A DNA stretch of 63,593 nt, the filler included, from Licmophora abbreviata (taxonomy: Eukaryota): assembly GCA_900291995.1 (NCBI GenBank). It is 15 parts of 15 records of this genome, joined end to end, with 100 filler letters (N's around TTAATTAATTAA, not from the genome) between each part and the next. Parts side by side here need not be neighbours in the genome. Positions count along the whole stretch, not along the records: positions 14,764 to 19,373 come from OLMU01001568.1; 14 more parts are not named here. The stretch is one strand, 5' to 3'. The position numbers and the translations under genes were made by a program. Under the pieces are notes generated by a model that saw only the letters and a list, made by a program, of their open reading frames with translations, made no database searches and was not told where the DNA came from. Position 1 is the stretch's first letter; every line of letters starts with the position of its first letter. Positions 14,071-59,617 of this stretch are shown here, piece after piece.

Positions 14071-14769
14071 TATGAATGGACGGCAGATGATCGCGTATCA
14101 CGTCCACCACGTCGTGACATAGTCATGCGCCGCCTGGCTGCTTCGCTTGCGTCGACAAGCGAATAGATGCTCCTTGCTACACAATACGTAAGGAACTAGA
14201 TATTTTAAAGTTCACTTTCTAAGCTAGACAATTTGTCCACGTCTGCTGCCATTGTTTCCAGGTAAAGTAGCGCTCCAATCCATTTACTTTCTCGACTCAA
14301 CTCGTGGTCCCGATCCGGATGGGGGTGCTTAAATGTCAAGGAGGCCCAAAGAGCAATACTAATAAGTATTCAGTACTGAAGTAGTGTATACTGATATTTA
14401 TTGGACAACATATATACAAGCGGTCATAATGACCATTTGGAAATATTTGAGACTACGGTCACAAATTGATATCATCAGGCAGCTAATGCATACTCGTAGT
14501 GCCTCACATTGTTTTGCGACAGGGCACAATTCGGATTTGCCAAACGCCTTGACTTCGCAGCCATTGATCTTGCTTGTAGGACCGTAGATTAGCCTTGAGT
14601 AGGCGATTGCCGAGGAAAAGGTGTGCCAAAACATTGAATGTGCGTCGCTAATTGTGAAGCACCNNNNNNNNNNNNNNNNNNNNNNNNNNNNNNNNNNNNN
14701 NNNNNNNTTAATTAATTAANNNNNNNNNNNNNNNNNNNNNNNNNNNNNNNNNNNNNNNNNNNNTATCCT

Positions 14770-16700: not shown

Positions 16701-17627
16701 CTACCTGTTGTACACGAGCGGATACAAGTCGAACGTATTGTACATTTCCGCCATGATCTCCGGTATGTCAGGGCCCAGATTGGTCATCATTGGAAACACG
16801 GTTTCAAGTGATTGTACAAGCGACTCCAGCGAGTCGTGCAATCGAACATAGGCATTCGGTGCTCCCAGAGTGGGACGAGGGTGAGAATCTACCAGAAGAA
16901 ATGGTAAGCCTTTTGCATCCTCTGGTATCGGATGTGGCGGCAGCGCCAACAGCACCGTCTCGGGCGTCTTGGTCATGATCACAGCCAACCATTCGTGATT
17001 ACCTTTTGTTTCTTCGAGGCATGCTTCGAGTATGGGTCGTAGTCCCAAGGGATGTGCGGGATCCGAACTTAGAATACCTTGGCGTACTCCCCCCTCAACC
17101 AAGCGAAGGTTTCGTTGAAAGAGGGGCAATTCGGTTCCTTCCATGGTGGACGACGCAGTCAGCTGCAGTACTTGTTCGGGCGACATGTGTTCCACAGTAG
17201 TACTACTAGTAGTACTAGTCGTTGTTTCTGGTAGACTCTGCAGAGCTCGATACGAAGCGATTCCTTCGTGAACGGTCGTCGAGATCCACTTGGACGACAA
17301 AAGACTACTAGGTGACAATAGCTCATCGCTCACCCTCATGTTTAGTCCCTCCAGCAGTCTAGCTGCACCCGTCAGGGCAATACAGGTACACGCCGATCGT
17401 CCATCGTCCACACTGTACTGACTGATACTACAATGAAGCATCGTGGGAGAGTGCACTGTAGCTGTGGCGTTTGTCGTTGCTCTTGTATCAGTCTCACCAT
17501 CACTACTCCCAACAACGGTGCCTCCTAGCAAGTAGTCAATGGCTCGCTCCACATTCCCATCCGACACGGTCCAAGCCACTTGCACTTGCGCTTCGTCAGA
17601 AAATCCCATGGCGACTAATTGATCCAT
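16701..17627 (-). CDS. UBA domain + viral-tegument-like (VTD / peptidase C76-like) deubiquitinase
   Basis: UBA (QLVAMGFSD...GNVERAIDYLL); SQYSVDDGRSACTCIAL with candidate catalytic Cys; FLLVDSHPR (D-x-H). Confidence 0.65.
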   Translation of the reverse strand: MDQLVAMGFSDEAQVQVAWTVSDGNVERAIDYLLGGTVVGSSDGETDTRATTNATATVHSPTMLHCSISQYSVDDGRSACTCIALTGAARLLEGLNMRVSDELLSPSSLLSSKWISTTVHEGIASYRALQSLPETTTSTTSSTTVEHMSPEQVLQLTASSTMEGTELPLFQRNLRLVEGGVRQGILSSDPAHPLGLRPILEACLEETKGNHEWLAVIMTKTPETVLLALPPHPIPEDAKGLPFLLVDSHPRPTLGAPNAYVRLHDSLESLVQSLETVFPMMTNLGPDIPEIMAEMYNTFDLYPLVYNR

Positions 17628-19129: not shown

Positions 19130-19500
19130 GACGCTTCAGTCACGGTTTGCCCTTCGTGGAGTCTGATCAATCGCAAAGACAGAAACGGAGACTCCCAGGC
19201 GTATGCACGGCAGTACAAGGCGAGTACAACACGATGAGTATCCCCATCAACGGTCGCGTCGTCGCGACACACCACAATGGCGGGGTTTGTTGAAGTCGAG
19301 ACCGCGAACAAAGGGCGGCGCGGGGCGGCGGCTCAAAAAACGTTTCCCGCCAAAATTTCAAACTTTTGGATCGNNNNNNNNNNNNNNNNNNNNNNNNNNN
19401 NNNNNNNNNNNNNNNNNTTAATTAATTAANNNNNNNNNNNNNNNNNNNNNNNNNNNNNNNNNNNNNNNNNNNNTAGAAGAGTACGATAAACTATACTCGA

Positions 19501-23885: not shown

Positions 23886-26082
23886 ATGCCACCCGTCGAC
23901 TCTGACAGTATCCATCAGTTGATTCTCCAATGTGGCGATGCAACCGCGACCGCAAGGCAGTTCTTGTCCAGTCCGGTGGGCAAAGCTCTTCTGGTTTTTC
24001 TAACGTGCGCCTTCGGGGAAAACCTCTTAACTGCCGCCATGATTGCATTTGCTTTGTATGAGGAAAGTGGCGGTTCAACCGCAACCGCAAGACTGTTCTT
24101 GTCGACTCCATTGGGCAAAGCTCTACTGGTTTTTTTGGCTTGCGCCATCGGGGAAAACCTCTTAATTGGTGCCATGATTGCATTTGCGTTGTATGAGGAA
24201 ACTGATGGCGGTACAACCGTGACGGCAACACATTTTTTGTCCACTCCAGCGGGCAAAGCTCTACTGGTTTTCTTAGCGTGTGCCTTGGGGGGAAACCTCT
24301 TCGCCGCCGCCATGGTTGCATTAGCTTTGTACGAGGCATGCGGCGGTACCGTCGGCGCGATTGCAAGGCGGATTTTGTCCGCATTTCTTGTATTTGATTT
24401 GTACGATGAAAGTGACAGTCGTGCGGCGACCGTAAGAGAATGTTTGTCCTCTCCAGCGGGAAGAGCTTTTCTATTGTTTTTAGCGTGTGCCTTCGGGAAC
24501 AATCTGCTCTCCGCCGCCTTGGTTGCACTGGTTTGTACGAGGAAAGCGGTGGCACAGTCGGCGCGACCGCAAGACAGGTTTTGTCCATTCCAGCGGGCAA
24601 AAGCCTTCTGTTGTTTTTAGTGTGTGCCTCTGGGGGTGCGTTCTTGGGCGACCTTCTATCAATCGCCGCCATGATTGCATTTGATTTGTATGGACCGAAT
24701 CAAGTGCAAAGGAGGGCTGCCACTACTTCTTGCGTTCAACCCGTGACGGTACCCGCCCTCGCAGTTCAGCAGCCGCAGCAGCAGCGTGCTCTTCCGGATT
24801 GTTCCGTTTGTAGCTCGGACCCTGGCGAGCTGACGTGCACCGGTACGGCTCCAACTCATCACTTTTGCATGGATTGCCTCAACGCATATGCGGTTGCGGC
24901 CTTTCAAGAGGGAGGGTCTTTCTGTCGAGAGATACAACAAGGAGCGGAGATTAGCCATGTGGAAGAACTTCCGTGTCCCTTTTTTGAACGTGACGGCTGT
25001 TCCTGCTCCGCCATACCTCATGCCGACCTCCGCAGTCACTTGTCGGAAGAATCGTTTGATCAATGGAGAAGAGCAAGCAACAGAATTGCTGTGGCAAGAG
25101 CTGATCAAGAGCGTCGGAACGTTGAACAAACACAGGAAAACCGCGCGGCCAAAATGGTGTAAATCATCTCCTTGAAGCCGTTCGGGAAGCTCTAAGCCTT
25201 GGAGCTAGTGTAGCGTGTCCGAATTGTGCCTTCCGAGGGGAGAAAGATGAAGCCTGTATGCACATCACGTGCGAGAACTGTCGTTCTCACTGGTGCTATT
25301 GCTGTGGTCGTCCTCGCCGTGTCGAGGCTGCAGTTGTGTGCACGACCTGTGATGTTCATGACATCTACATACAGAACCACCCAGGATGGAATCAGTATCA
25401 GCAAGAGCCAGGGGAGATTCTTGCGTTCGGTGCTCTACACGAGTTTCATCGGCGCAGAATGGCGTATTTTATTCGTCGTCTGACCGAAGGCGTACCTCAG
25501 GCACCATGGCAAGAGTTATGGGAGCAGCACGGCGAAATTCTCAACCAAGTCCCAACCCCAAATCGTCGTATTTCTCTTCAAGATATCGAGAACGCTGAAC
25601 CACCTGTTTTTGATCAGACCCCACTTGAGGCTGTACAGTGGCTGGGCGATATGGACCCCATTATGGCCAGACTCCGACAAGAATTGCCAGATCCAGCAAG
25701 AAGAAACATGGAAGACGACACGCCAGCACAGCCGCGACGACAACGCAGGCAACGTACGCCGGTACAGCCGCGAAGGCAACGCGAACAACGCGAACAAGAG
25801 CGGCACGACAACCACCAGGTGGAAATTGATGCACTTTTGCATGCTGCCGATATGGATCCCGAGATGACGCATGCCTTGATAGAAAGTCTTCTGCTGCAAG
25901 AGCAGGAAGTAATTGAGCCCCAAAATATCGATGTGACGCAGGAGGAGGAAGGAATAGAACCCCAAAATGTCGGTGCGACTCAGCCCGACGAGGAAGTAAT
26001 CGAGCCCCAAAGAACAAATGCCGGCCGTCGTCGACGTCGCATGCTCCCTTTTCGAAGGAGGCGGGGAAGAGTTGAGATTTGA
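23886..26082 (+). CDS. RBR-like E3 ubiquitin ligase with N-terminal hydrophobic tandem repeats and a UIM-like motif (frameshifts ~24530 and ~25150)
   Basis: RING1 CSVC...C...HHFCMDCL...CPF; Rcat CPNC...KDEACMHITCENCRSHWCYCC; UIM-like DPEMTHALIESL. Confidence 0.72.
23941..24690 (+). repeat. Coding tandem repeat, ~135-bp (45-aa) unit, five full copies and one internally deleted copy
   Basis: Units start near 23941, 24076, 24214, 24349 (short), 24421 and 24555; consensus TATARxFLSxPxGKALLVFLxCAxGxNLLxAAMIAFALYEESGG. Confidence 0.92.
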
Positions 26083-26489
26083 AGCTCTGGAAGAATTGTA
26101 TGTTAGCCTATGTTTATAGAGAGTATCCTCTAGTGCGCACTGTAGTCTTCGTTCCTCGCAACCGTTGTCCCATAATCCGCCGGTCCCCCCTCAATAGTTG
26201 AGTCGAACGATTGATTCTAAAAAGGGGACGCGCGTTTGACATTTTCTGTGACCGCCGCGCGGCGGACCGCGTGATGGCGACGATGGATGACGTTTCAAAA
26301 AAAGATCGCAAAAGATCAAAAGATCGAATCAATAAGCGCCGAAGGGATAATACGCTGTGAGTGACGAGTTCGGACAAAGATCCACCAGTATTCCAAATAC
26401 AGGCTCACAGCTTTGCCCAGTCTTCTTTGTTTTTCCTTCGCTGAGCTCAAACTTCTGGTTGTAAAACTTAGAGAAGATTCGAACCGAAA

Positions 26490-27425
26490 ATGACCATGTC
26501 GAAAAGCTGGATCGCTCTACTTCTTCTCTCTTTCTCTGCGACGACGAGATATGATTGTGTTTCGGCGTTTGTCGTTCCAACGACTCGACGCACTTTTGCA
26601 AGCCTTCGAGCTGATGCCAGTGACACCCTGAGTGATCAGCAAGAACATGCCCGTGAAGTCTTTCAAAAGTACGACATGGATGACAGTGGCACCATCAGTT
26701 CCAATGAACTGGGCGACATGCTTCGGGACTTGGATATTGACGCCGAAGAAGACGAAGCGCATGCCTTGTTTCGATATCTGGACGACGATGAAGATGGTGA
26801 GATAGATTTTGTTGACTTTCTTCCCTGGTACAGCGATGCAGCGGGAACGGCGCAAGAGATGGCGGCGAGCTTTCAATCGCTTCTGATTGGACGACGAACT
26901 GTAGAACAATTTGATCAGACTCCCGTCAGCGAGGATGTCTTGAAGCGAGCGGTGCAGTGTGCCATTGCAGCTCCGAATAGGAGTATGAGTGAACCCTGGA
27001 GATTCATCAAAGTGGGACCAAGGACGGTCGCCAAGTTTGCTGAACTCAATGCTATGATACGCATGAACATGGAAACTGATGACGGAGCGAGTTCAGTACT
27101 GGATTGGTCAACTGTTCCAGGCTGGTGTGTCGTGACAAGTAAAGTTACACCGAACGACGAGGAGATTGAATTGGAGAACTTTCGATCGACCAGTTGCGCT
27201 ATTCAAAACTTCATGCTGAGTATGTGGAGCGAAGGCATTGGAACCAAGTGGACGAGCGGCCCTGTCCAGAAGACGCAAGAGTTCGCTGATCTTTGCGGTG
27301 TCGATACTCAGTATGAAAAGGTGGTTGGCTGTATCTGGTATGGCTTTGCTGCTGGAGGTATTAAAAATGCGGATCCAAAGCGTCGGCTCAAGACTGTCGC
27401 TGACGTACTAACAAGTCTTCCTTGA
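26490..27425 (+). CDS. Plastid-targeted EF-hand pair + nitroreductase fusion
   Basis: VSA-FVVP presequence; DMDDSGTISSNE and DDDEDGEIDFVDF loops; RRTV..F, APN...EPWRF, AIQNFMLS.WSEGIGTKW. Confidence 0.9.
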   Translation: MTMSKSWIALLLLSFSATTRYDCVSAFVVPTTRRTFASLRADASDTLSDQQEHAREVFQKYDMDDSGTISSNELGDMLRDLDIDAEEDEAHALFRYLDDDEDGEIDFVDFLPWYSDAAGTAQEMAASFQSLLIGRRTVEQFDQTPVSEDVLKRAVQCAIAAPNRSMSEPWRFIKVGPRTVAKFAELNAMIRMNMETDDGASSVLDWSTVPGWCVVTSKVTPNDEEIELENFRSTSCAIQNFMLSMWSEGIGTKWTSGPVQKTQEFADLCGVDTQYEKVVGCIWYGFAAGGIKNADPKRRLKTVADVLTSLP

Positions 27426-28954: not shown

Positions 28955-30016
28955 TTAGCTACGCTTTGAAGGCGGCGCGTTCATTCGCGTCGATACACCG
29001 CCTATTCTGGCCATTCGTCGCTCATATTCGTCCTGCGTCCTCCAATCCGGTCCCAAGGTCCACTCCAGTTGGGCATTCACCACTGTACGTTGTCCATTTT
29101 GGCGCATTTCCGTCACTCGTCGCAACTGATACGGCACATTGCGCTGGTTGCCATAGATGAACTCGCCCGTTGCGACATTGTACCCACGGTCGTGAATCCA
29201 GAAATCATCCGACCATAACGACAATTGATCTTTGATAAGTATTTCCGTTCCAGGAACCATTGTACTATTGACAATTGCTTGACCATGCACCATGACGGCG
29301 TGATGTTGATCAGCTTCTGGCTGATTTTGTCGTCCATGACTATGCGCGAGTGGGTGCTGGAGGGCGTACTCGTGGAGGACAGGATCCATGTCGCGACTCC
29401 ATCGAACCTCACACCGAGGAAGCTGCTTCAGTGTTGGTTCCTGCGGCGTACCGCTTTGAAACTCGTGAAAAATACGCGGCCATTGCATGGGATTCGGGGC
29501 GTGCCGAAGCTTCGCTTCCAGGTCAGGGTGCAGTGTGTGCAAGATCATGTCGACAGACGAGTCATTGCTATCTGTCAGCAGAATTCGATAATGCCGGAAT
29601 CGAAAGATGCGCTCCGGCATTCCCTCAAAGTAAAATGCGGCGAGTCTTGCCGAAGTTTCGGTCGGCCCGAGACTTACGTCGGTTTGCTCATCATCATCGT
29701 TCTTGTCGGATACGGGTATTAGCGTGCAGTGAATATGCTCGTGTCCTCCGCCCTCTCGTGGCAGCAGATTCTCCTGACGATCTTCGTAAACTTGATAATA
29801 GTTATCAAAGTCCCCTGAAAAGTGTTCCAACAGAGTCTTCCAAGTCTCGTACGAAGAGGAAGTACTAGCAGAGTCCCAAACTGCTGTTGATGATGAACGG
29901 CAGAAGGCCGGTGTCCTTATCCTCACCGATGGTCGAAGAGAAAATCCAACACAGACATAGACAAGTGTGCTACAGACGAGGTATGCCTTGAGGAATACCA
30001 CAGCAAACAGTCGCAT
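28955..30016 (-). CDS. cpcT: CpcT/CpeT (CRUMPLED LEAF-like) bilin lyase family protein, plastid-targeted
   Basis: FSGDFDNYYQ, HEHIH, RIFRFRHY, WIHDRG...GEFIYG...PYQLRRV; signal peptide ending CVG-FSL. Confidence 0.75.
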   Translation of the reverse strand: MRLFAVVFLKAYLVCSTLVYVCVGFSLRPSVRIRTPAFCRSSSTAVWDSASTSSSYETWKTLLEHFSGDFDNYYQVYEDRQENLLPREGGGHEHIHCTLIPVSDKNDDDEQTDVSLGPTETSARLAAFYFEGMPERIFRFRHYRILLTDSNDSSVDMILHTLHPDLEAKLRHAPNPMQWPRIFHEFQSGTPQEPTLKQLPRCEVRWSRDMDPVLHEYALQHPLAHSHGRQNQPEADQHHAVMVHGQAIVNSTMVPGTEILIKDQLSLWSDDFWIHDRGYNVATGEFIYGNQRNVPYQLRRVTEMRQNGQRTVVNAQLEWTLGPDWRTQDEYERRMARIGGVSTRMNAPPSKRS

Positions 30017-30259
30017 GGCGGATGGAACGGTATAGAGGGACAACAGAGTTGCTCCACCGCACAATGATGATGATGATCATGTTGAAGTTCAGACTGGGAA
30101 AGTGGGCGGTTTAGATTTTGACTTTTTTTGTGGCGCGCCAGTCTGTCCAGCCATCGGACAGCGAGCGAGGTGCAGGAGGACGAGCCAACGATGATGTGTA
30201 CGAGTAGACCCCTCTATGAGGCGTGTAACTGATGTCGTGGTATAGCAAGTCTGACGATG

Positions 30260-47121: not shown

Positions 47122-50100
47122 CTAGCTAATTGCATTGTCCTCCAAGCGCGACCCCAACATATTGCGGCAATACTCTTCTTCCTTGGCGCTATCTCCGTTG
47201 AAGGCGTACCACTCCCAGAAAGGCACGTGCAACACGGTCCATCCAAGCTTTCGAAGCAAACGTTCCTTCAGACTCGTCGAGCCATTCTTCTGCTGTCGAT
47301 TGTCCCACTTGAATTGGAACTCAAGTTTGTTATTGGAAACTCTTGTGAATCCACTTGCTGGTTCCTGAGGAGACCATGTGTCCAGGACGCTAATGAAATG
47401 AGCCGGGCCGTCCACTTCAACGCCGATCTTATCGTCGACATTGGCAACGTCGATCGAGAGAATCTCCAGAGGCTGCGATGGAAGCTGCACTCCGTGATTC
47501 TGCACCAAGTCCTTCATGGTGATGACATGTTCTTGTACATGCTCGAATCCAACTCGGTTCAACGCAGTGCTCACGTCCTTCTGGATCTTGCTTGTGCTAA
47601 GTGTCAGCATCGACGACAGCATCTCAAGCATGTCTTCAATCTCGCCAGACTCGCCAACGAGATCCCATCCATCGGGGAAACCCTCGGGCAATATCAAGTC
47701 ATTCTCTGGGTATTCCAGATCCATGGCCAGTTGTACCTGAAAGGTATTAAATGATAAGATTGTAGCGATATTACGTGAGAACGAGACACCAGTCGATCTC
47801 GTGTAGAATGGAGGAACTTGCATGCACTTACATAGAGCAGCGACATGGTAGCTTGTCGCTGTAGCCCTCCATCACCGTAGACTTTTCGCAGATAGTCTGG
47901 GTCACACTCGTCATCACGTCCAACCAGCCCCGTATAGAGCAGCCTCAAGAAACTCGCATCGTAGTAGCCCTCGACAGCACAGCTCCAAGCTATGTTTGCC
48001 AGTTCTTGTCGCTTGAAATGTTTCGCAATCGTTTCGGCCCGTACGATACCTCCACGCGAGCACATCTTCGCCATGTACGGCGCGGCCACATGCAAGATAT
48101 CAGAAATGTCATGACCAAGACTGGCAGAAGCCCATATTATATTGGCAAGCTCCTGGCCTTTGAAAGCGGCTGCCCTACTCGTCGCAGAAAGACTAAAAGA
48201 TCGAAGGAGCTGCCAAAGTAAGAGGTACGATGCAGGACACACAGGACGACTGACCGGCCGTCTCAAACTTCCTCCCAAGCCACGTACCGGCGCACCACTT
48301 GACAGGAAAGAGCGTCAAAGAAAGGCCCGTGTCGCAACCCAAGTACTGCAAACGCCCAAATAGTGTTGCTCATGTCTTGCGCCTTTAGCTTGGACAGCCC
48401 GTCTGGACAAGGAGACACAAGGAGCAGCTTGGAATCAGTATCACACACGACAGTCTGCCGTTCCACAATCAAACACGCAATGCAACACGGAAACAGAACG
48501 TACCATGCTTGCGTAGGTCCGCGTCCGCGAAGGCATTGAAGAGTCGTCGTACAAGACTCTCGCCGACATCAACACAGATGGTAGAGTACACAGCAAGTCT
48601 GCCAGTTTTCTCTCGAGTGTAGCTTGCTATTCGCTCGGCCGCCTGTGTCGCTAGTTGAGCTTGCTTCGCGTAGCTCCAGGACAGGTTGCCGATGCCTTGA
48701 GGTGAAAATTCGTCAAGCCCGCGACCGATGTGGATTCTACCCTGGGGAACGGGTTCCGATTCAGAGCCCACGAGATGCTCCGCAATCGTTTTGAAGAGCC
48801 GTGGGTGACGCATTCCGACCTTCGAAAAACTCCACATCACATCCTTTATCTCCTGCGACTTGAACTGCTGCGGACGACGCATTAGCTCGTTGGAGGCTGC
48901 AGCAAAGCAGAGCGTCACTGGGTCATCAGACATATCGGCAAGAGAAGACCTCTTAGTCGGTGGAATCAGTGAGGTCTCGAACGCGTCGAGATACTTTGGG
49001 ATCACCCCCGCCGTCGCGAGCGCCCAAACTGAGTTGCTAAGTTCCTGGGGTTTGAACTGATTCGCACGATCAACAGTCAGCCGTGAAGCAATCATTCGAT
49101 AGACATCCTCGTCGAAGTACTCAACAGTCGCAAAAGCCCACAAGGTCGTGCCGATATCTTGCCCCGTAATCTGACGTCGCGGAAACCCGAACTGCCGCCC
49201 GATTCCCTTATACAATGCGGTTGATTCCTTTCGCTCTAACCTTGCAAAAGCCCATGCAATGTTATTAAGCTCCTGCGACCGAAATTTCGGTAGTTTAGGA
49301 ATGGCCGCTTGCGCCACTGCATCCAGGGCATTAGCCATAAGCTGCCTGTCACCTGCCATATCGTCCGTCCGCAGGAAAACATAGTTGTTCAGAACACTAG
49401 CGCTACTTTCGGATTCACTCATTCCAAAGCCCAGTGTTGCGAACGCCCAAGCTGTGTTACTCAATTCCTGCGACTTGAACTCGTCCGCGCGGACCGTAAT
49501 TGCGCGGGCAATATGGCGCAGTATTCTTAGGACGACCCGATCCTCTTTTTCAAGCTCTTCTGGAGAATAGCTGTGGCTGCCAGAACCACGCTTGAGCGAA
49601 ACAATCGTGGCAATACCCCATGCTGTATTGCTCAGCTCTTGCGCAATGAACTCTCCGACAAACTCCGGTCGCTTGTCGAGTATATCGGCCACATGTCGAA
49701 TAAGGTTCGATTCGCTCTCTCCGTGAATCTGCGCTGTCGCAAACGCCCAGACTGAGTTACTCAGCTCCTGTGGTTTAGGTTGTTGCTTAAAACCATCCTG
49801 CACAAGTTTGGAAGCAATGTGCTGAAACACACGTTCATCAGCACGTTGAGAGGTCGCAAAGGCCCACAGCAAGTTGGCCATCTCTTGGGTGTTAAACACT
49901 GTTTTTGATTTCAAAATGGACACGGCAATACTATCGAGAAGCTGTCCCGCCATCGTAGATAAGGCAGGAATCCAGTTCTTTTGTTGCTGCTGCGAATTAC
50001 GATTTCGGGCCGCCTCCAATACCAACTCGCGAACGCGACACGATGTTTGGACTAATTCTTCCAGCACAGTCTCCTCCAGATTTACGTCAAGAGTGCTCTT

Positions 50101-50865
50101 GGGTGGAGCCAAGCGTAGCTTTGCCAGTGCCCATGCTATGTTTGAACATTCACGAGAGTTGAATGCAATCGAAAGCTGTTTCTTTTTCGTCTCCGACGAT
50201 GGGTCTTGATACCCAACAAACGCTTCGCTGAGGGAACACAAAAACAGGGCAAATCGTGGATCTGATAGAGTTCTGGCGCGATCGTCGCGGGCATACTGCA
50301 AGTGCCGTGCGATTCGATGAACGGCAGTCGAAAAGTTGACTGAATTCAGTGTCTGCCCTCCCGCTGGCTTCGTCATGGCATCCGGTATGGAAGCAAGGAG
50401 CGCTAAGACGTCCAATGGCGTCTCACACGCAATCAGTTTCTTGTTGGTGGCAATAGCCACAGAAATATCGTTGTCCCTGCTGGGTCTTTTATTTAACTTT
50501 CGGGGTGGACCTTTCCGAGGTGCCGCATTGCGTTGTGGTGTTGTTGTGCGATCTGACGGCTCGCCGCCCTTGGCGACAAGCAGGGGTGAGCGGCAAGTGC
50601 TACGATTTTGAAAGAATTGCATCGGCTGCGTACGAGAGTCATGACGTCGACTGTCTTGCACGACATGAAATCGACTAAGCAAAGCCGAACCAGTGTTCAG
50701 ATATGCATTCGATCCGGGAAACAGGATAACGGCAATCCACACAAGCCATCGGGTGTCGAATAGTACTCGCATGGACTGTGTCGGTGAATCTTCTGTAGCT
50801 ATTTTTCCATAGGACCATTCCGATGAATTTCTTCGTCTTTTCTGTCTTTTTCTGGACTGGCTCAT
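47122..50865 (-). CDS. OPR/FAST-repeat + RAP domain organellar RNA-binding protein (4 exons)
   Basis: More than ten F.xQELSN..WAFA repeats; RAP domain SIDVA...GVEVDGPAHF...STSLKERLLRKLGWTVLHVPFWEW; GT-AG introns ~48503-48403, ~48287-48193 and ~47831-47737; signal peptide from Met at 50772 ending SNA-Y. Confidence 0.9.
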
Positions 50866-51421
50866 CTTGATGATTCTTTAGAGTAAAACTCAAATCCTGG
50901 GCATGTAAAGACGTCGGGAAAGGCTCAAGCACCGAAAGATACGGCAAAGTACCATCGTCGTCCCATCACACCCATCACATCACATGTTCAACTTTCACCG
51001 CGCGGTCTCGCTGATGACGTCAAGATCTGATGGCGGGCAGAGATCCATGCGTACGTACGTCGCTCGATATTGATTTCTGGCGAGGGACTGGAGTGACTCG
51101 ACTCACTCGACTCATCCTCCCTATCTCGCTAGTAGGTCCTGAGTAGGAACTAAGCTTTTCAAACGCAATGCCTGTCGACCCTATGAGCCTATTTCGATAG
51201 CACCATCTGACTGTTGTACAAGAATAAGCTCTATTAGGTGTAAACTCGAGTCTCCAAGGTGCAGAAAGGCATACTGATTTGATTCCCTGGAGAGCGGCAC
51301 CATTCTGTCGTTGTGTTGCTTTGGAGCTTATTCCAGACATGCAATGCCGGGTGGTGACACCCGAAACGCTGATTTCTTCGTGTCTTTGATGCTTTCTGGG
51401 TGCGCTGTGTCTGAAACCTTA

Positions 51422-54400
51422 CTAATGGAACATTCTATTCTGTCGATCTCGAATCTGATCGTGTAATTGGTGATTCTCGCCCTGAAGCGACAGGATTGTG
51501 GCTAAAAGTTCCCCTTTCATCTTTCGAAATTCCTTTGTCAATCTCTCCTTTTCCCGGCGAGCTTCACTCGCCTCTGCCCTCAAGTTTTCGGTGTTCTTGG
51601 CCGATGCAGACTTCTTACCCTTCACACGAGCCAGCTCTGCCTTGACCTTCTCGTGTTGCACAAGAGAAATCGATTCATTCTGAGCCAACTCAAATTCTTT
51701 CTGCAGAAGGTTATATTTCTCAGACAAGGCAGTGAGTTCGCGCTTGAGGTTGTTCTCTGACGCTCGAGGCTTTCTGCCCATTGGAGCCTCGTTCTCCAAG
51801 CGCTCATTAATGTCTAGGAGTTCTTCGTTGATCAATTGGGCCGCCACTACTTCAGCCTCAGTCTCGGAGAGTCTCGTCAGAGCTCTTCGACCCTCTTCTG
51901 AAGCGCCTCGATCTCTTTCCCAGCTTCGAGCACAAGCGCCTCTTGCTCCTCGGCGACCTGGCGCTGAAGATCGGTCTCGAACTTCTTCCTTCGCTCTGTT
52001 TCCTCCTCAAGCCGAGTCTCCAGATTGATTTGTTCTTCCATAACTGATAGAAGCTCCGACATTTGGTTCTTACCCTCAGTAATCTTGTTCTCGAGAGCAG
52101 CTTCGTTTTGCGAAGCCAAGCGGATCTCGTTCTCAAGTTCCGACAGGCGGCAGAGGGAGTCTTCGAGACTCTTTGTCGTCTTCTGGAGCTCGGCCGACAA
52201 CGCTCGCGATCCGTCTCGGGCTTGAGTGGCTTCCTTTTCTCCGCCGGTCAAGGCTTGTTTGACGGCAAAATTATCGATTTGGAGCACAAGAAGCTGCGAC
52301 GCCAGATTTTCCGCCTCCTCACTCCTCGTAGCTTCGAGCTGCGCCTTGCTCTGTCCAAGTCTTGAGATCTGCGCAGCTAAGGCGTCGCGGGCTTCCAGAA
52401 GTGCTTCTTTTTCTTTAGAAAGAATCTGATTCTCTTTATTGGAGGCATTCAGGCGTGCCTCCATGCTCTCCGCTGATTTTGAAGTCAGAGCAAGCTGCTT
52501 CGATAAGCGACGCTTCTCCGTTTCCAGTTCATCGAGCCGACCCTCTGCGTTCTTGAATTCTTTCGTTGCAAGAGAAAGTGATTCCTTGAGGGAGACTTGC
52601 GAAGAGACGGCTTCATCGCGTTCCTTAGTCAACGAATCCAATTTCGAGTTCTGGTCCTTGAGCTGTCCAATAAGAGACTGTTTTCCTACCGAAAGTTTTC
52701 GCACTCTCGTTTCCAGCTTGGTGACGTGGTCTTGAAGTGTTGTCGACGTCCCGTCGAACGAGGGGGATTGACTTGTAGAAGATGAATGGTTCTCGCCCAT
52801 AGAACGCTGCTCAAGTTGCGAAGTGAGGCTCTCAGTGAAATGACAGGACATGTCCGCGATGCGGGATTTCATCTTGGTCTCTCGAGCCCTCTTATTGACA
52901 AAGTAATCCAATGTCCCATAAGCCCAAAGAGAGAAATCAAACTCACGCATGACCATTTGTCCTGAAGGAAACACAAACTGACGTTTGACTCCTTCGTACA
53001 AAGCCGTTTCCTTCATACGTCCAAGCCGTGAAAATGCCCACACAAGATCAGTGAGTTCCTCAGATTGAAAGTGAGAAAGCCTTGGAATGGCCGTCTTCTC
53101 CAATGCCTCAAACGCGTTGACCATAAGTTGCTTGTCGCCTGCAATGTCATCCGTCTGTAGGTCCATGATGGAGCTGTGCAGCACAGCGCTGAGCTCCGAT
53201 TCTTCCAGTCCAAACCCAAGGGTCGCAAAGGCAAACGCTGTCCTGCTTAACTCTTGCGTGCTGAACTCGTCGGCATGCGCCACAGTTGCGCGAGCGACAC
53301 GCCGCAACAATCGCACAATGACCTGATCCTCGTCGGTGACGTCTTGGGCGCTCAGAGAGCGCCTCTTGTGCGAGACGATATTGGCAATGCTCCAGACCGT
53401 ATCGCTGAGCTCTTCGGCATCAAAATCGTCCATCATTTCTGGTCGATTGTCCAACAAGTCGGCCACGTGTCGGATCAGGTCCGATTCGCCTTCACCGTGA
53501 ACCTTCGCTTCCACAAAAGGACTTAGGGAAGCAGTTATATCGTGGGGTCTCAGGGCTTGCTGATGTAAGTCATTTTGTACAAACTGAGAGACCGCGTGAT
53601 CAAACACACGGGCATCGGCTCGTTGGGAGGTCGCAAGTGCCGACAACAAGTCGATCGTCTCTTGGGTGTTGAACGAAGTCTTGGCACTCCGCGNNNNNNN
53701 NNNNNNNNNNNNNNNNNNNNNNNNNNNNNNNNNNNNNTTAATTAATTAANNNNNNNNNNNNNNNNNNNNNNNNNNNNNNNNNNNNNNNNNNNNCTAGTAC
53801 TCTAGCCGCCACCAGCGACAACACTGGAATCCATCGCTTTGACTGATGCTGTCCCTCCATACGACTGCGTGCCACCTCCATCACGAGTTCGCGGACGCAA
53901 CCCGTTGCATGGACGAGCTGCTGCGTCGCAGTCTCCTCCAGATTGACTCCCAGCGTACTCTTGGGTGGCGCCAGGTGTAAGTGGGCTAGGGACTGTGCAA
54001 TCTTTACAAGGTCGCGTGAGGTAAACTGTAAGGACAATGAGCTCGAAGACGGAGAGTCCTCAGTTCCGTCGTACCCGACCAATGCTTCGCCGAGAGCGCA
54101 GAGGAACATGGCAAAGCGCGGATCCGATAGGGTTCTGGCGCGGTCCTTGCGGGAGTCCTCGAGATGGTGAGCAATCTTGTGGAGGGCAGCGGAGAATTGG
54201 GTCGAATTTAGTTTCTGTCCTCCAGCCGGTTGCGTCATTGCGCCAGCTATCGAAGCAAGTACTGCCAAGACATTCGAGGAAGTTTCGCACGCGATCAGCC
54301 TCTCGTCGATCGTTTTGTCGATGCTGACAGCGGCAGTGGAGTTTTGGACGGTCGTGTCGGACTTGAGGGGAGGCGCCGTCAGTGTCGGTTTCTGGAGATC

Positions 54401-54823
54401 AGGTTTGACAGTATCGGCGTGAAACAAAGACGAACGCGACGAATGATCTCGAAAGAGCTGTTGCCTCGTCGTCTTACGCGGGCTGGTGTGCACGCGACTG
54501 GATGGAATCCGCAGAAGAAGATGATTCATGTATCCATTCGACTTGGGAAGCAACAAGGCTGCGGACAAAAGAATTAGCATGGCAGAGACCGGAGACGCTC
54601 GTCTACCAAGACCAGTTTCGAACCGCAATTCGGAACGTAGTTTGGGGCCTCTCGGCTCATCGCGATGGCGCCCTTTCATTATCGTTTTCTCGATTCTGCG
54701 TTTACAAGGAGGCTTCCTGCCAAAGGGGTTGCAGAGGCAGCAGCTGGATAGGCTCGAGGTACGATACGAACCACAAGTCTTCTCAGACGATCCTTCAACA
54801 ACATCAACACCCTTTTTGTCCAT
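51422..54823 (-). CDS. Paralog 2: truncated OPR-repeat region fused to a long coiled coil, no RAP (gap 53694-53793, frameshift ~51880)
   Basis: N-terminus clearly homologous to the RAP gene (IACETS..VLA.LAS...PAGGQKL...RARTLSDPRFA.FLC); C-terminus homologous to paralog 3. Confidence 0.82.
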
Positions 54824-55325
54824 GTTTTTCGAAATCCAACAACGTGTTCTCTCACAAAGTGAACTTCGTCACTCGCAGCAACATTCCGAATTCTCAAATA
54901 ACACCAGCGTGGCATTGTCGATGCGCCATAAGTAAATATTTCTCATGAGCTTGCACGCGCGCGAGGCGAGTGAGCACATTGAACATTGCATCATGGCGCG
55001 ACCGACCGAGAGGAAGGAAGATACTCCTCGCTTTGCCGTAGCTTAGCCGGTACACCGGGTATGCTACATATCTTAAGTGTGATTGTACTTGCTACACAAC
55101 CAACTAGTATTGTTACACTCAATGGACTGGCGTAGGCGGTATACTGCTGACAAAGAAATGGACGGTGATCATTTGGTTCGACATGACATGACATGATATA
55201 TTCGTCCGACAGTAGAAGTGTTCTGGTTACTGTCATTCACTGTGGTTGTACGATGGCACTAAGCTCGTCGTTGATGTTGGTCTTCCCCCAGAACCCCCCA
55301 GGTGGGCAGTGATAAGCTGCGACTG

Positions 55326-58300
55326 CTAGCTCAATCCCCCATATCGTTGAATTCGAATCTGGTGGTGCAACTCATGATTCTCGTTCTGAAGAGCCGCAAT
55401 TGTGGCCGACAACTCTTGTTTCATCCTCATGACGTCCGCGGTCGACTTTTCCTTTTCGACCTGAGCTTGGTTTAACTGAGCCCTAAGATTCTCCCCTTGT
55501 TGTGCCGCTGCGAAGTTTGCTGCCCGGACACGACCCAGCTCCGCCTTCATCCCCTCGATTTCTCGCTGGTGCTCGCCGTGAGAAATGGATGCTTCCCGAA
55601 AGGACTCCACTTCCGCCTGCAGCTCACTTTTCTTTTCGGAAAGGGACGTGATTTTGCCTCTCAGCGCATCTTGCGATTCTCGAGCTACTTTGGCCTTTAG
55701 TTCCTTGGCTTTTAAGCGCCAGTTCTGATCCTGAAGCTCTTCATTTTCTTGCTGCGCAGCTGCCGCTTCTACCTGTATTTCAGAAAGGGACGCCTGTAGC
55801 TGTTCGACCTTGCTTCGAAGAGATTTTATCTCAGTCGAGGCTTTGGCCCGTTCCTTGTCAGTCTTGCGTCGAAGCTGGGATTCTGAAAGCTCCCGCCGAT
55901 CAACATCCTCCTGCATGCGAGCTGCAACACGGAGTGTCTGTTCCTGCAAGTCGTCCAGCTCTGACTCAAGCTTTTCTTTCTCGTTGGCAGTTCGTATGGA
56001 TAGTTCGCGGAGCTTCTTTTCCAGTTTCGAGCGGTGACTTACGGAGTCTTGCAGAGCCTTCGTTGTTTGCTGGAGCTCTTTTGACGAAGCCTGAACATCA
56101 TCCTGAAGTTGTGTCATGTTCTTGTTGGCGTCTGCCAGCAGGTTGTTTGTTTTACGTAGCTCATGCTCAAGTTCTGCCTGGCGACGAGCCGAGTCTTGAA
56201 GACGCGTCGTCTTCTTTCGGATGGTCTCCGATGATGACTGAGCTTCAGCTTGAAACTGTGATGCTTCCCTCTGGGCGTCCTTTACAAGTTGTTTCATCTT
56301 GCGGAGATCATTCTCGAGGTCTGACTGCCGCCGAGCCGCCTCCGCAAGACTACTTCTCTGCTCCTGCAGTTCATCCGTCGCTGCCTGTGCTTCGATCTGG
56401 GCTTCTGCAACTTCCGCTTTCCCTTCAGCCAAAATTTTCCTCAGTTCATAGCTCTCATACTCAAGAGTCATTAGCTTGACCTTCAGCTCTTTATCGGCCT
56501 CGCCCTTACTCATTGACGAGAGCCGCTCTTGGTCTTGTCGGAGTTTTGAGACCTGTGCATCCAGCGCGTCACGAGCCTTGAGAAGCGAATCCTTTTCCGT
56601 CGCGAGAGCCTGAGTCTGACGCGTCGCCTCCTCTAAGCGTGTTTCGAGATCCTCCGTTGATGCGGAAAGCATATCTAGCTTCGCCGACATTTCGCGCTTT
56701 TCAGACTCCACTTCCTCAAGTTGTCCACGGACGCTTTCTAAATCGTCCATCGTTGAATCGAGTTTTTCTGTCAAGAAAGCCTGCGAAGCAACCGCTTCGT
56801 CGCGTTCCCTCACCAACGAAGCAAGCGTCAAATCCTGGTCCTCGGACTGATCAGTCTGTGCCTGTTTTTCGAGAAGTACTTTTTCAATTCTCGCTTCCAG
56901 CTCTGCGACACGGTCTTCGAGCTTACTCTTACTCGCTTCAAGAAAAGCAGCCCGATCGGTGACTTCAATTTTTTCAGAGGAGAGTTGCTCCAATTGGAGA
57001 ATACTGGCGTCAAGCCGACACTGCATGGCGCTAAGGGCTTTCCATTCTTCCTTGTAGGGACTATGAGCCTGAGAGGCAGCCTCATAATATTGATGACGCT
57101 GTTCGGGAATCTCAGCCGTGTCATTTTCCATTTCAAGGCTCATGTTGTTTACTACCGACTCAGTCTCGTCGGTCGCACTTTCCTCGTACATCTGACTTGC
57201 AATTCTATCTGCTGCTTTGCTGGCAAGTTGAGCTTGTCTCTCATAGCTCCAAGACAAGTCTTCGATGCCTTGTACGTCATGCCCCATCTCATCCGTTGGT
57301 ACAAGTACCGATTCAGGTCCAACCATGTACTCAGCGATTGTCTCAAACAAACGAGGATGCCGAACACCGACCTTGGAAAAGCTCCATAGTACATCATTGA
57401 TATCCTGCAACATGAACTGCTGCGGATGCTTCATCAGCTCGTCGGCGGCTGCGCCAAAACAAAGAGTGATGGGATCATCGGAAGTGTCGGGTCGCGTGAC
57501 TCTGGTCTTCGACGAAAGTAACGAAGTTTCAAATGCGTCCAAATACTTGGGAGTTACCCCCGCCGTTGCCAAGCCCCAAACTACGTCGATGAGGGCCTTA
57601 GGCTCAAGCTCGTTTGCGTGCTCGATGGTCAACTGAGAAGCGATGGTCCGGTAGACGTCTTCGTCGAAGTATTCCAAGCTTGCAAAAGCCGACAAGGTAG
57701 TTAGGACATCTTGTCCAGAAACCTTGCGCCGTGGAAGACCAAATTGACTTCCGATAGCTTCGTACAACTCTGTGGACGATTTCCGCTCTAGATGTGCGAA
57801 CGCCCACGCCAGATTTCCAAGCTCTTCCGAGCGAAACTCAGGTAGTCTCGGAAGCGCCGACTCTGCTACGGCATGTAGCGCATTCGCCATTAGCTCATGC
57901 TCATCTGCTGATTCGTCGGTCTGTAGAACGGCATTGTCACTCCCCGTAGATTTATCACTGTTCTGGGATTTACGCATCCCAAAGCCCAACGTTGCAAAGG
58001 CCCAGACAGTGTTAGCCAGCTCCTGCGATTTGAACTCGTCTGCTCGAGCTGCAAGGGAGCGGGAGATATGCCGCAGTGTCCGCCGAACAACCCTATCTTC
58101 TTCTTCCAGCGCCCCCGGACTATAGTGGCCGATACCGGAGGCCCGTTTGTCGGAGATGATTGTGGCTATTCCCCATGCTGTATCGCTCAATTCCTGTGCA
58201 TTGAAGTCATCCACCATCGCCGGCCGCTCGTCCAGTAAATCAGCAACGCAACGAATCAGATTCGATTCGCCCTCTCCATGAATCTGAGCCGCGGCAAATG

Positions 58301-59411
58301 CCCATATAGAATTGCTCAGCTCCTGGGGTTTCAACTGATGCTGTAGGTCGTCCTGTACCAATGCAGCTGCGATGTGGTCAAACACTCGTTTGTCAGAACG
58401 GTGCGTCGTCGCAAATGCCCGAAGCAAGTTCGACATTTCCTGCGCATTGAAAACAGTTTTGAATTTCAAAGTAGACAGTGCAATAATATCCAGCAACTTT
58501 CCTGCCACCAACGACAATGCGGGGATCCAGTGCTTTTGATGCGGTTGTTCTCCGTTCCGATTACGTGCTGCTTCGAGTACAGACGTGCGTACTTCAAACG
58601 ACGATTGAACCAGTTCGTCCATCACACTGTCCTTCAGATTGACGTCAAGAGTGCTCCTGGGTGGAGCCAAGCGTAGTTTTGCCAATGCCCAAGCTACCTT
58701 TGAGCACTCAAGTGAGCTGAAAAGAATCGAAAGTTTGTTTGCTGACGACTCTTCGTCTACGTCCTGGTACCCGACCATGGCTTCGCTGAGCGAACACAAG
58801 AGGAGGGCGAACCGTGGATCCGACAGTGTCATGGCGCGATTGTCACGGGAGTACTGTAAGTGCCGCGCGATTCGGTGTATGGCAGTGGAGAAATCAGACG
58901 AATCCAGTTTCCGTCCTCCCGCAGGTCTCGTCATGACGCCCGGAATAGAAGCGAGGAGTGTCAATACGTCTGAGGAAGTTTCACATTCAATCAGTTTTTT
59001 GTGATTGTCGGATATCACAATAGCACGATCTTCGATATTGAGGTTGCGCAGCTTTTCGTGTCTTTTCGGAGATGAGACTCCATGGGATTCTGAGCTTTGG
59101 GTAGGTTTCGAAGCCTGGTCAGTTCTCCCGCCTTTTGCGAGCAACTGTGTTGAAGACTGCTGGTGATGCCTAGCCTTGTCGAGCAGAACCTCATGACGCC
59201 ATCTGACAGGGGCCAGGAAATTGTTTGAAAAGGCGTTCGACGTAGGTAGCAACAGAGACACCAGGAAAAGCAGCCAGCCAATATCCAGGTGAATTCTGCA
59301 ACAGGGTGCCGCCTCAACAGCCAATGCCGAATCTTGTAGGTTGTATCCTTCCTTTGGAAGGCATACGGGCGCTCTCCCTCTCCTTCGCATACCAGCGTCT
59401 CGCCGCTTCAT
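55326..59411 (-). CDS. Paralog 3: OPR-repeat region fused to a ~570-aa coiled coil, no RAP, single 1361-aa ORF
   Basis: Colinear with exon 1 of the RAP gene up to LSWSY..QAQLA..AA.RIAS, then a heptad-rich tail; signal peptide ending SNA-F. Confidence 0.88.
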   Translation of the reverse strand: MKRRDAGMRRRGRAPVCLPKEGYNLQDSALAVEAAPCCRIHLDIGWLLFLVSLLLPTSNAFSNNFLAPVRWRHEVLLDKARHHQQSSTQLLAKGGRTDQASKPTQSSESHGVSSPKRHEKLRNLNIEDRAIVISDNHKKLIECETSSDVLTLLASIPGVMTRPAGGRKLDSSDFSTAIHRIARHLQYSRDNRAMTLSDPRFALLLCSLSEAMVGYQDVDEESSANKLSILFSSLECSKVAWALAKLRLAPPRSTLDVNLKDSVMDELVQSSFEVRTSVLEAARNRNGEQPHQKHWIPALSLVAGKLLDIIALSTLKFKTVFNAQEMSNLLRAFATTHRSDKRVFDHIAAALVQDDLQHQLKPQELSNSIWAFAAAQIHGEGESNLIRCVADLLDERPAMVDDFNAQELSDTAWGIATIISDKRASGIGHYSPGALEEEDRVVRRTLRHISRSLAARADEFKSQELANTVWAFATLGFGMRKSQNSDKSTGSDNAVLQTDESADEHELMANALHAVAESALPRLPEFRSEELGNLAWAFAHLERKSSTELYEAIGSQFGLPRRKVSGQDVLTTLSAFASLEYFDEDVYRTIASQLTIEHANELEPKALIDVVWGLATAGVTPKYLDAFETSLLSSKTRVTRPDTSDDPITLCFGAAADELMKHPQQFMLQDINDVLWSFSKVGVRHPRLFETIAEYMVGPESVLVPTDEMGHDVQGIEDLSWSYERQAQLASKAADRIASQMYEESATDETESVVNNMSLEMENDTAEIPEQRHQYYEAASQAHSPYKEEWKALSAMQCRLDASILQLEQLSSEKIEVTDRAAFLEASKSKLEDRVAELEARIEKVLLEKQAQTDQSEDQDLTLASLVRERDEAVASQAFLTEKLDSTMDDLESVRGQLEEVESEKREMSAKLDMLSASTEDLETRLEEATRQTQALATEKDSLLKARDALDAQVSKLRQDQERLSSMSKGEADKELKVKLMTLEYESYELRKILAEGKAEVAEAQIEAQAATDELQEQRSSLAEAARRQSDLENDLRKMKQLVKDAQREASQFQAEAQSSSETIRKKTTRLQDSARRQAELEHELRKTNNLLADANKNMTQLQDDVQASSKELQQTTKALQDSVSHRSKLEKKLRELSIRTANEKEKLESELDDLQEQTLRVAARMQEDVDRRELSESQLRRKTDKERAKASTEIKSLRSKVEQLQASLSEIQVEAAAAQQENEELQDQNWRLKAKELKAKVARESQDALRGKITSLSEKKSELQAEVESFREASISHGEHQREIEGMKAELGRVRAANFAAAQQGENLRAQLNQAQVEKEKSTADVMRMKQELSATIAALQNENHELHHQIRIQRYGGLS

Positions 59412-59617
59412 TCGTAAATTGAAATCTTGCCGTAAAGACTGCTAAGTGATGTTGAACGACTCGTTCCGTTCAACACGAAACCATGGTCAATCTTCAATTT
59501 TCTAAATTTTGGTAGCANNNNNNNNNNNNNNNNNNNNNNNNNNNNNNNNNNNNNNNNNNNNTTAATTAATTAANNNNNNNNNNNNNNNNNNNNNNNNNNN
59601 NNNNNNNNNNNNNNNNN

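Follow-up and report, generated by a model that had tools for sequence, protein, structure and literature searches.

Previous work showed that Wc-VTD1 of Waddlia chondrophila (structures 8ADB and 8ADC) is a VTD deubiquitinase (DUB) specific for K6-linked ubiquitin chains, and that a K6 preference is found in the Waddlia, Naegleria and two fungal VTDs tested (PMC9741609). SnVTD of Simkania is also K6-specific and has a membrane anchor (PMC10643670). All five tested enzymes of the group, Wc-VTD1 and the Sn, Nf, Si and Sl enzymes, prefer K6 (PMC9741609, PMC10643670). In Wc-VTD1, E363/N364 are required for cleavage, residues 421-423 are shifted by the ubiquitin tail, and loss of Leu481 abolishes cleavage; a C-terminal helix, alpha-9, is reported for all K6 VTDs and as missing from other VTDs (PMC9741609). 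Stramenopile and alveolate VTDs were assigned to the fungal/protist group, and Erven et al. traced K6-type VTDs back to an ancestor shared by alveolates and stramenopiles (PMC9741609). According to the text of that paper, the classical families are not known to include a eukaryotic DUB that is truly K6-specific, and the role of the K6-specific VTDs is enigmatic (PMC9741609).

The locus compared here with these enzymes lies in a window of 63,593 nucleotides from the diatom Licmophora abbreviata (GCA_900291995.1), the window being the whole stretch of DNA analysed.

The gene and its surroundings

The gene occupies one open frame on the minus strand (16701-17627, read from 17627 to 16701) that encodes 308 aa, is stop-free and requires no intron, and homologues align with its product, P0001, over 79-100% of its length. 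It lies within one 4.6-kb contig (G000:C1568), and four of four runs hold short contigs nearly identical to stretches of the ORF, which they cover in part. Its neighbours are a ferric reductase gene, tail to tail, and a TRAPP subunit gene, head to head. No signal or membrane anchor was found in P0001, which has no hydrophobic stretch (maximum KD19 1.06). The best reading is that P0001 is soluble and the product of an ordinary chromosomal gene among housekeeping genes.

Three other views of the locus were considered and rejected. A transposon origin was set aside because none of the 33 other window ORFs scanned belongs to a mobile-element family, with transposase, helicase and HUH families all absent from them. 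A functional tie to the flanking genes was set aside because TRAPP lies beside the VTD gene in 4 of 70 loci, LYR in 5 of 70 and ferric reductase in none of the 70, and gene order is shuffled (27 loci of at least 4 kb). Finally, plastid (SELMA) targeting was rejected because the UBA domain begins at residue 2 and an upstream in-frame Met is absent; the UBA start within 20 residues of the N-terminus in 227 of 270 proteins likewise counts against such targeting.

The window consists of contigs chained by artificial N-linkers, for example at 14664-14763 and 19374-19473. In loci L048 and L055 the VTD gene has genes of adjoining window contigs beside it, and the order of the contigs may therefore mirror real synteny. 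An IBR-domain (RBR ligase-type) ORF is present at 25126-26082, on a separate contig about 8 kb from the VTD gene. Elsewhere the window has a cluster of at least four FAST-kinase-like/RAP-domain ORFs (47122-59441, minus strand), a CpeT/CpcT-family ORF (28955-30076) and an ORF fusing an EF-hand to a nitroreductase (26472-27425).

The UBA domain and linker

A preliminary description of this DNA had proposed an N-terminal UBA domain, and the domain is real: Pfam PF00627 matches residues 2-33 (17529-17624, minus strand) with an E value of 4.9e-7 and 29.9 bits against a cut-off of 22.4. The same Pfam scan gave nothing in the rest of the protein. In the AlphaFold2 model the UBA has three helices (residues 2-6, 12-21 and 26-34; pLDDT about 90) and an MGF loop, which is kept in similar form in 261 of 264 homologues. 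By a profile of our own, a UBA is present in 266 of 319 full-domain homologues. Residues 37-58 (17454-17519, minus strand) form a flexible, low-complexity linker with pLDDT below 50 at residues 37-50, and the median distance from the UBA end to the conserved Gln of the catalytic domain is 35 aa (261 homologues).

The catalytic domain and its family

Residues 61-308 (16704-17447, minus strand) make up the catalytic domain. As a single sequence P0001 matches 8ADB weakly (E 0.05); profiles match it strongly, with E values of 6.6e-23 for the family profile and 6.9e-22 for a VTD-only profile. At E<=10 the VTD-only profile found no PDB sequence besides 8ADB, the herpes and Helitron structures being unmatched. 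In the AlphaFold2 model (pLDDT 87.6) a linker that is disordered at 37-50 joins the three-helix UBA to the catalytic domain. Foldseek gave six matches at E<=0.001, all of them VTD or M48 entries (8ADC, 8ADB, 8ADD and 2J7Q) spanning 5e-10 to 5e-7, the best being 8ADC (E 4.9e-10, target TM 0.74). In the VIA comparison the Helitron VTD scored Z 19.6, M48 18.9 and Wc-VTD1 17.9, followed by AvrPphB at 11.1; of the three VTD entries 8ADB had the lowest rmsd (2.7) and the highest identity (25%). By predicted fold, motif and sequence, P0001 thus falls within the VTD family, and the fold and family given in the preliminary description are borne out by the profile and structure searches.

The herpes-tegument type named in the same description needs a correction. 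The fold is shared by the herpes enzymes (M48, UL36, BPLF1) and Helitron DrT1-VTD2 (Foldseek E 1e-7 to 5e-7, Z 18.9-19.6), and the herpes and Helitron VTDs (2J7Q, 8ADD) have a D-x-H site like that of P0001; at 12-19% identity there is no sequence-level match, and the closest sequence is the Waddlia K6-type enzyme. The Pfam Herpes_teg_N HMM (PF04843) did not match P0001, and it matched 1 of 15 members of family A4, at E 0.039. Arthropod members predominate in the nearest Atlas clusters (0.95), and in two of the three Herpes_teg_N is found in 11-17% of members; with known families skipped, the best Atlas value was 0.88, giving leads only. The herpes and Helitron VTDs lack alpha-9 and cleave K48, K63 and K11 chains (PMC9741609). 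YopT/AvrPphB-like proteases, the next-best fold (Z 11.1), have the conventional Cys-His-Asp order, in contrast to the D-x-H of P0001.

With Wc-VTD1, P0001 shares the fold, the Cys and D-x-H site, a VEH-x-S-x-E motif, the TK turn, the C-terminal helix and an N-S-F motif. It differs in being a eukaryotic gene product with an N-terminal UBA, in its low identity (22-25% in structure alignments), and in that the P383/F384 loop and L481 of Wc-VTD1 are not clearly kept. Where SnVTD has a membrane anchor, P0001 has the UBA. The fungal and protist Nf-, Si- and Sl-VTDs have intact active sites, as P0001 does; in most fungal VTDs the partner is an RBR ligase, and Nf-VTD is a short protein (PMC9741609), whereas P0001 carries a UBA.

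Active-site motifs

Both catalytic motifs were correctly placed at the outset. The first, S-Q-x5-G-x3-C, is S69-Q70-x5-G76-x3-C80, with the Cys codon at 17388-17390; the second, hydrophobic-D-S-H-x-R, is V-D247-S-H249-P-R251, with D-S-H at 16881-16889. Among 190 stop-free stretches of at least 100 aa in the window, either motif is found in P0001 alone. In 200,000 shuffles of P0001 the motifs arose singly 165 and 163 times and never both in order, a lenient control because the patterns were derived from P0001 itself. Stronger evidence is the retention of Q70, C80, D247 and H249 in 121 of 121 aligned sequences. A larger set comprised the 309 homologues spanning at least 90% of the catalytic domain; these are about 27-60% identical and, having been collected by similarity, are biased toward intact motifs.

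Cys80, the putative nucleophile (17388-17390, minus strand), aligns to Cys313 of Wc-VTD1, and the Asp247-Ser-His249 of the VTD D-x-H motif (minus strand) corresponds to D440 and H442; Cys80, Asp247 and His249 are each kept in 309 of 309. Gln70 (17418-17420, minus strand) is present in 306 of 309 and aligned to a Gln of 8ADB. A Gln has an oxyanion role in herpes UL36/BPLF1-type enzymes and VTDs, and we take Gln70 to be the oxyanion residue. As a word, 'oxyanion' is absent from the VTD paper PMC9741609.

The segment H147-x-S-x-E151-Q152 (17172-17189, minus strand) aligns to E363/N364 of Wc-VTD1. An acidic residue, E or D, occupies position 151 in 279 of 309 homologues, and an E-E pair is usual at 151-152 (235 and 257 of 309, respectively). 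H147 itself (17187-17189) is a second invariant His (309/309), shared with Wc-VTD1, for which no role was found in PMC9741609. The T-K-T-P-E-T hairpin turn (16956-16973, minus strand) aligns to Wc-VTD1 421-423, with K220 kept in 308 and E223 in all 309. A loop and C-terminal helix at residues 284-297 (16737-16778, minus strand) are equivalent to the K6-associated alpha-9 region; Y296, the counterpart of F483, is present in 300 of 309 and L284, the counterpart of Y472, in 267, and across the homologues the helix carries a near-invariant M-Y-N.

On this sequence evidence P0001 is very probably an active DUB. Two observations bear on how that could be judged. The Nf-, Si- and Sl-VTDs and SnVTD cut K6 di-ubiquitin without reacting with Ub-PA (PMC9741609, PMC10643670), so absent Ub-PA labelling would not disprove DUB activity. 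Nor would a model with the His out of line disprove it, because in crystals of M48 and Wc-VTD1 the catalytic His has a non-productive placement (PMC9741609).

Linkage preference

The reading we favour, by a little better than an even chance, is that P0001 is a soluble, chromosomally encoded VTD DUB of the fungal/protist/Waddlia group, most likely K6-preferring. Taken by itself, a preference for K6-linked chains is somewhat probable from the sequence. The predicted helix at 290-296 aligns to alpha-9 of Wc-VTD1 (474-486), with Y296 at F483. Of the Wc-VTD1 residues required for K6 cleavage, Y301 is matched by Y or F in 304 of 309 homologues, K310 by R or K in 264, F483 by Y in 300 and E363 by E or D in 279. 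From the alpha-9-like helix and these conserved equivalents of Y301, K310, E363 and F483 we infer a Wc-VTD1-like mode of action. Other positions among the Wc-VTD1 contacts with proximal and distal ubiquitin are less well kept: at Leu481 P0001 has Glu294 (across the 309 homologues, Met occurs there in 128 and Glu in 19), D306 has no conserved equivalent among the 309, Y472 is replaced by Leu in P0001, and the P383/F384 loop gave no clean alignment. Neither the VIA structure scores nor the Atlas language-model features favour the K6 group for P0001. When residues 60-308 were modelled in complex with ubiquitin of this genome, without an alignment, the best score was 0.14 against a mark of 0.34, a result that we count neither for nor against the reading.

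By analogy with Wc-VTD1, the tail of the distal ubiquitin would pass the TKxPET turn and the H-x-S-x-E-E/Q motif to reach Cys80, while the C-terminal helix would contact the Ile36 patch of that ubiquitin. The helix, Tyr71 and Arg77 would provide the site for a K6-linked proximal ubiquitin, a site formed by alpha-1 and alpha-9 and accepting K6 geometry, and His249 may become productive on chains only. UBA domains bind the Ile44 patch of ubiquitin. From this general behaviour, the UBA of P0001 most likely holds a further ubiquitin; on its linker of about 35 residues it would take the Ile44 patch, and its grip would tether the enzyme to longer chains or to ubiquitinated substrates.

It is possible, if on the unlikely side, that P0001 is an active VTD DUB with another or broad linkage preference (K48, K63 or K11), and that the UBA, not the catalytic domain, selects substrates. 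Both the VIA Z scores and the Atlas features lean to the K48-type group, the homologues' E-E pair at 151-152 resembles D376/E377 of the Helitron enzyme, and P0001 has Glu at the Leu481 position; moreover, the K63-specific Wc-VTD2 shows that VTDs can switch linkage (PMC9741609). Against this, Wc-VTD1 is the sole solved structure linked to P0001 by sequence, and P0001 has the alpha-9-like helix with its near-invariant M-Y-N, a helix that the non-K6 VTDs described lack (PMC9741609).

A further alternative is a protease for a ubiquitin-like modifier such as NEDD8, or for ubiquitin precursors, and not for chains. One branch of the homologues bears a UBA_4-type domain instead of a UBA. Neddylation factors, DCN1 among them, contain UBA_4. 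Ubiquitin fusion genes occur in this genome, and BPLF1 doubles as a deneddylase while UFSP2 and ATG4 share the D-x-H triad (PMC9741609). We nevertheless consider such a protease improbable: every characterised VTD cleaves ubiquitin, the tested K6-group enzymes are unreactive to NEDD8 probes or NEDD8-AMC (PMC9741609), and the UFSP and ATG4 folds reach just Z 5.7-7.0 in VIA. One of the fusion genes (L005:3-629) joins ubiquitin in frame to a sequence that presumably resembles nickel superoxide dismutase. A ubiquitin-nickel superoxide dismutase fusion has previously been described in algae. Most improbable is a catalytically silent ubiquitin-binding adaptor, as the inactive VTDs known in insects are without active-site residues (PMC9741609) and Cys, Asp and His are kept in 309 of 309 homologues here.

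Distribution of the fusion

A whole-protein search gave 197 matches; among the 120 listed, all nine with organism names are diatoms. A full HMMER scan whose query was just the catalytic domain found 265 representatives at E<=0.001, and a profile of 20 distant members added six brown-algal and four diatom names among 94 matches. A cluster look-up gave a MAST-4 stramenopile protein with a UBA_4-type domain and intact motifs. Of 336 proteins collected, 319 span at least 80% of the VTD domain; these counts are of sequences, near-identical cluster members included, and not of independent lineages. Fifty-three of the 319 lack a UBA by our own profile, many of them being N-terminal fragments or UBA_4 carriers, and one homologue has two RanBP-type zinc fingers in place of the UBA. 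Swapped or added ubiquitin-related modules on the VTD domain are found in P0333, P0238, P0243, P0268, P0341, P0127 and P0332, and include two RanBP-type zinc fingers, UBA_4, two UBAs and a weak U-box match. A search for longer fused forms gave two matches among 8000 scored candidates, one a UBA-VTD with a long tail and one with the UBA only, which is weak evidence.

A tree of 59 domains, with an unresolved backbone and long branches, was used for local grouping only. It puts P0001 in a 17-row group with all the named diatoms (support 91/95) and the brown algae in a clade of their own; as it includes no Naegleria, fungal or Simkania sequence, it does not allow the family to be assigned to the K6 clade.

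Outside eukaryotes, a single-pattern search for viral relatives, a weak search, gave 14 matches in viral contigs, none of them confirmed. For prokaryotes 1 of 15 pattern matches was confirmed (L008); Waddlia and Simkania were missed, their motif differing. The confirmed match (L008:2785-3687), a UBA-VTD gene, lies on a contig of 412 kb from a MAG that bears the label Alphaproteobacteria. The contig is probably misbinned algal DNA, because the flanks look eukaryotic, and we do not read the match as gene transfer. A ubiquitin search of this MAG, in itself uninformative, found nothing.

This genome has a second, divergent VTD (L002; G000:C6716:1-1119, minus strand) on a 1.1-kb contig, with a frame open at both contig ends. 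Its Cys and D-S-H are intact, and it matches by hhalign at E 1e-22 and 8ADB at E 7e-4. In the tree it groups at 100/95 with P0235, a protein of 2018 aa that carries two VTD domains and matches FYVE weakly. By eye, P0235 also has a U-box-like stretch and a Cys/His-rich tail, and it recalls the fungal VTD-ligase fusions.

Novelty and significance

P0001 is a real, intact and new architectural variant, a UBA fusion, of a published DUB family. The words 'UBA' and 'diatom' are absent from the main text and three text supplements of PMC9741609, whose figures and source data may show such sequences. Our literature search, with most subscription papers outside it, found neither a title nor an abstract dealing with a VTD that has a UBA or comes from a diatom. 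The fusion therefore appears undescribed, as first suggested; its confinement to diatoms does not hold, since brown algae share it and the MAST-4 protein has a UBA-like form. Databases label the homologues merely 'UBA domain protein'.

A wider proposal, which we regard as doubtful, is that the family is a dedicated K6 'reader-eraser' of the stramenopiles. The UBA would catch the Ile44 patch freed when alpha-9 opens compact K6 chains, and MAST-4, diatoms and brown algae would all have conserved the arrangement, alongside another VTD, perhaps one joined to ligase-type domains. If this were true, these algae would have a signalling circuit based on K6 chains, and knockout of an endogenous gene would give a handle on what such chains do.

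If P0001 is not K6-specific, it is still a modest extension of a known family, and a predicted, previously unannotated DUB is added to diatom and brown-algal genomes. Tests of K6 VTDs have to date covered bacterial proteins, domains from fungi and a single protein from an amoeba. P0001 might serve as a better K6 reagent, and as a small, soluble and conserved stramenopile member with its own ubiquitin-binding domain it would make the role of the K6 VTDs testable in algae.
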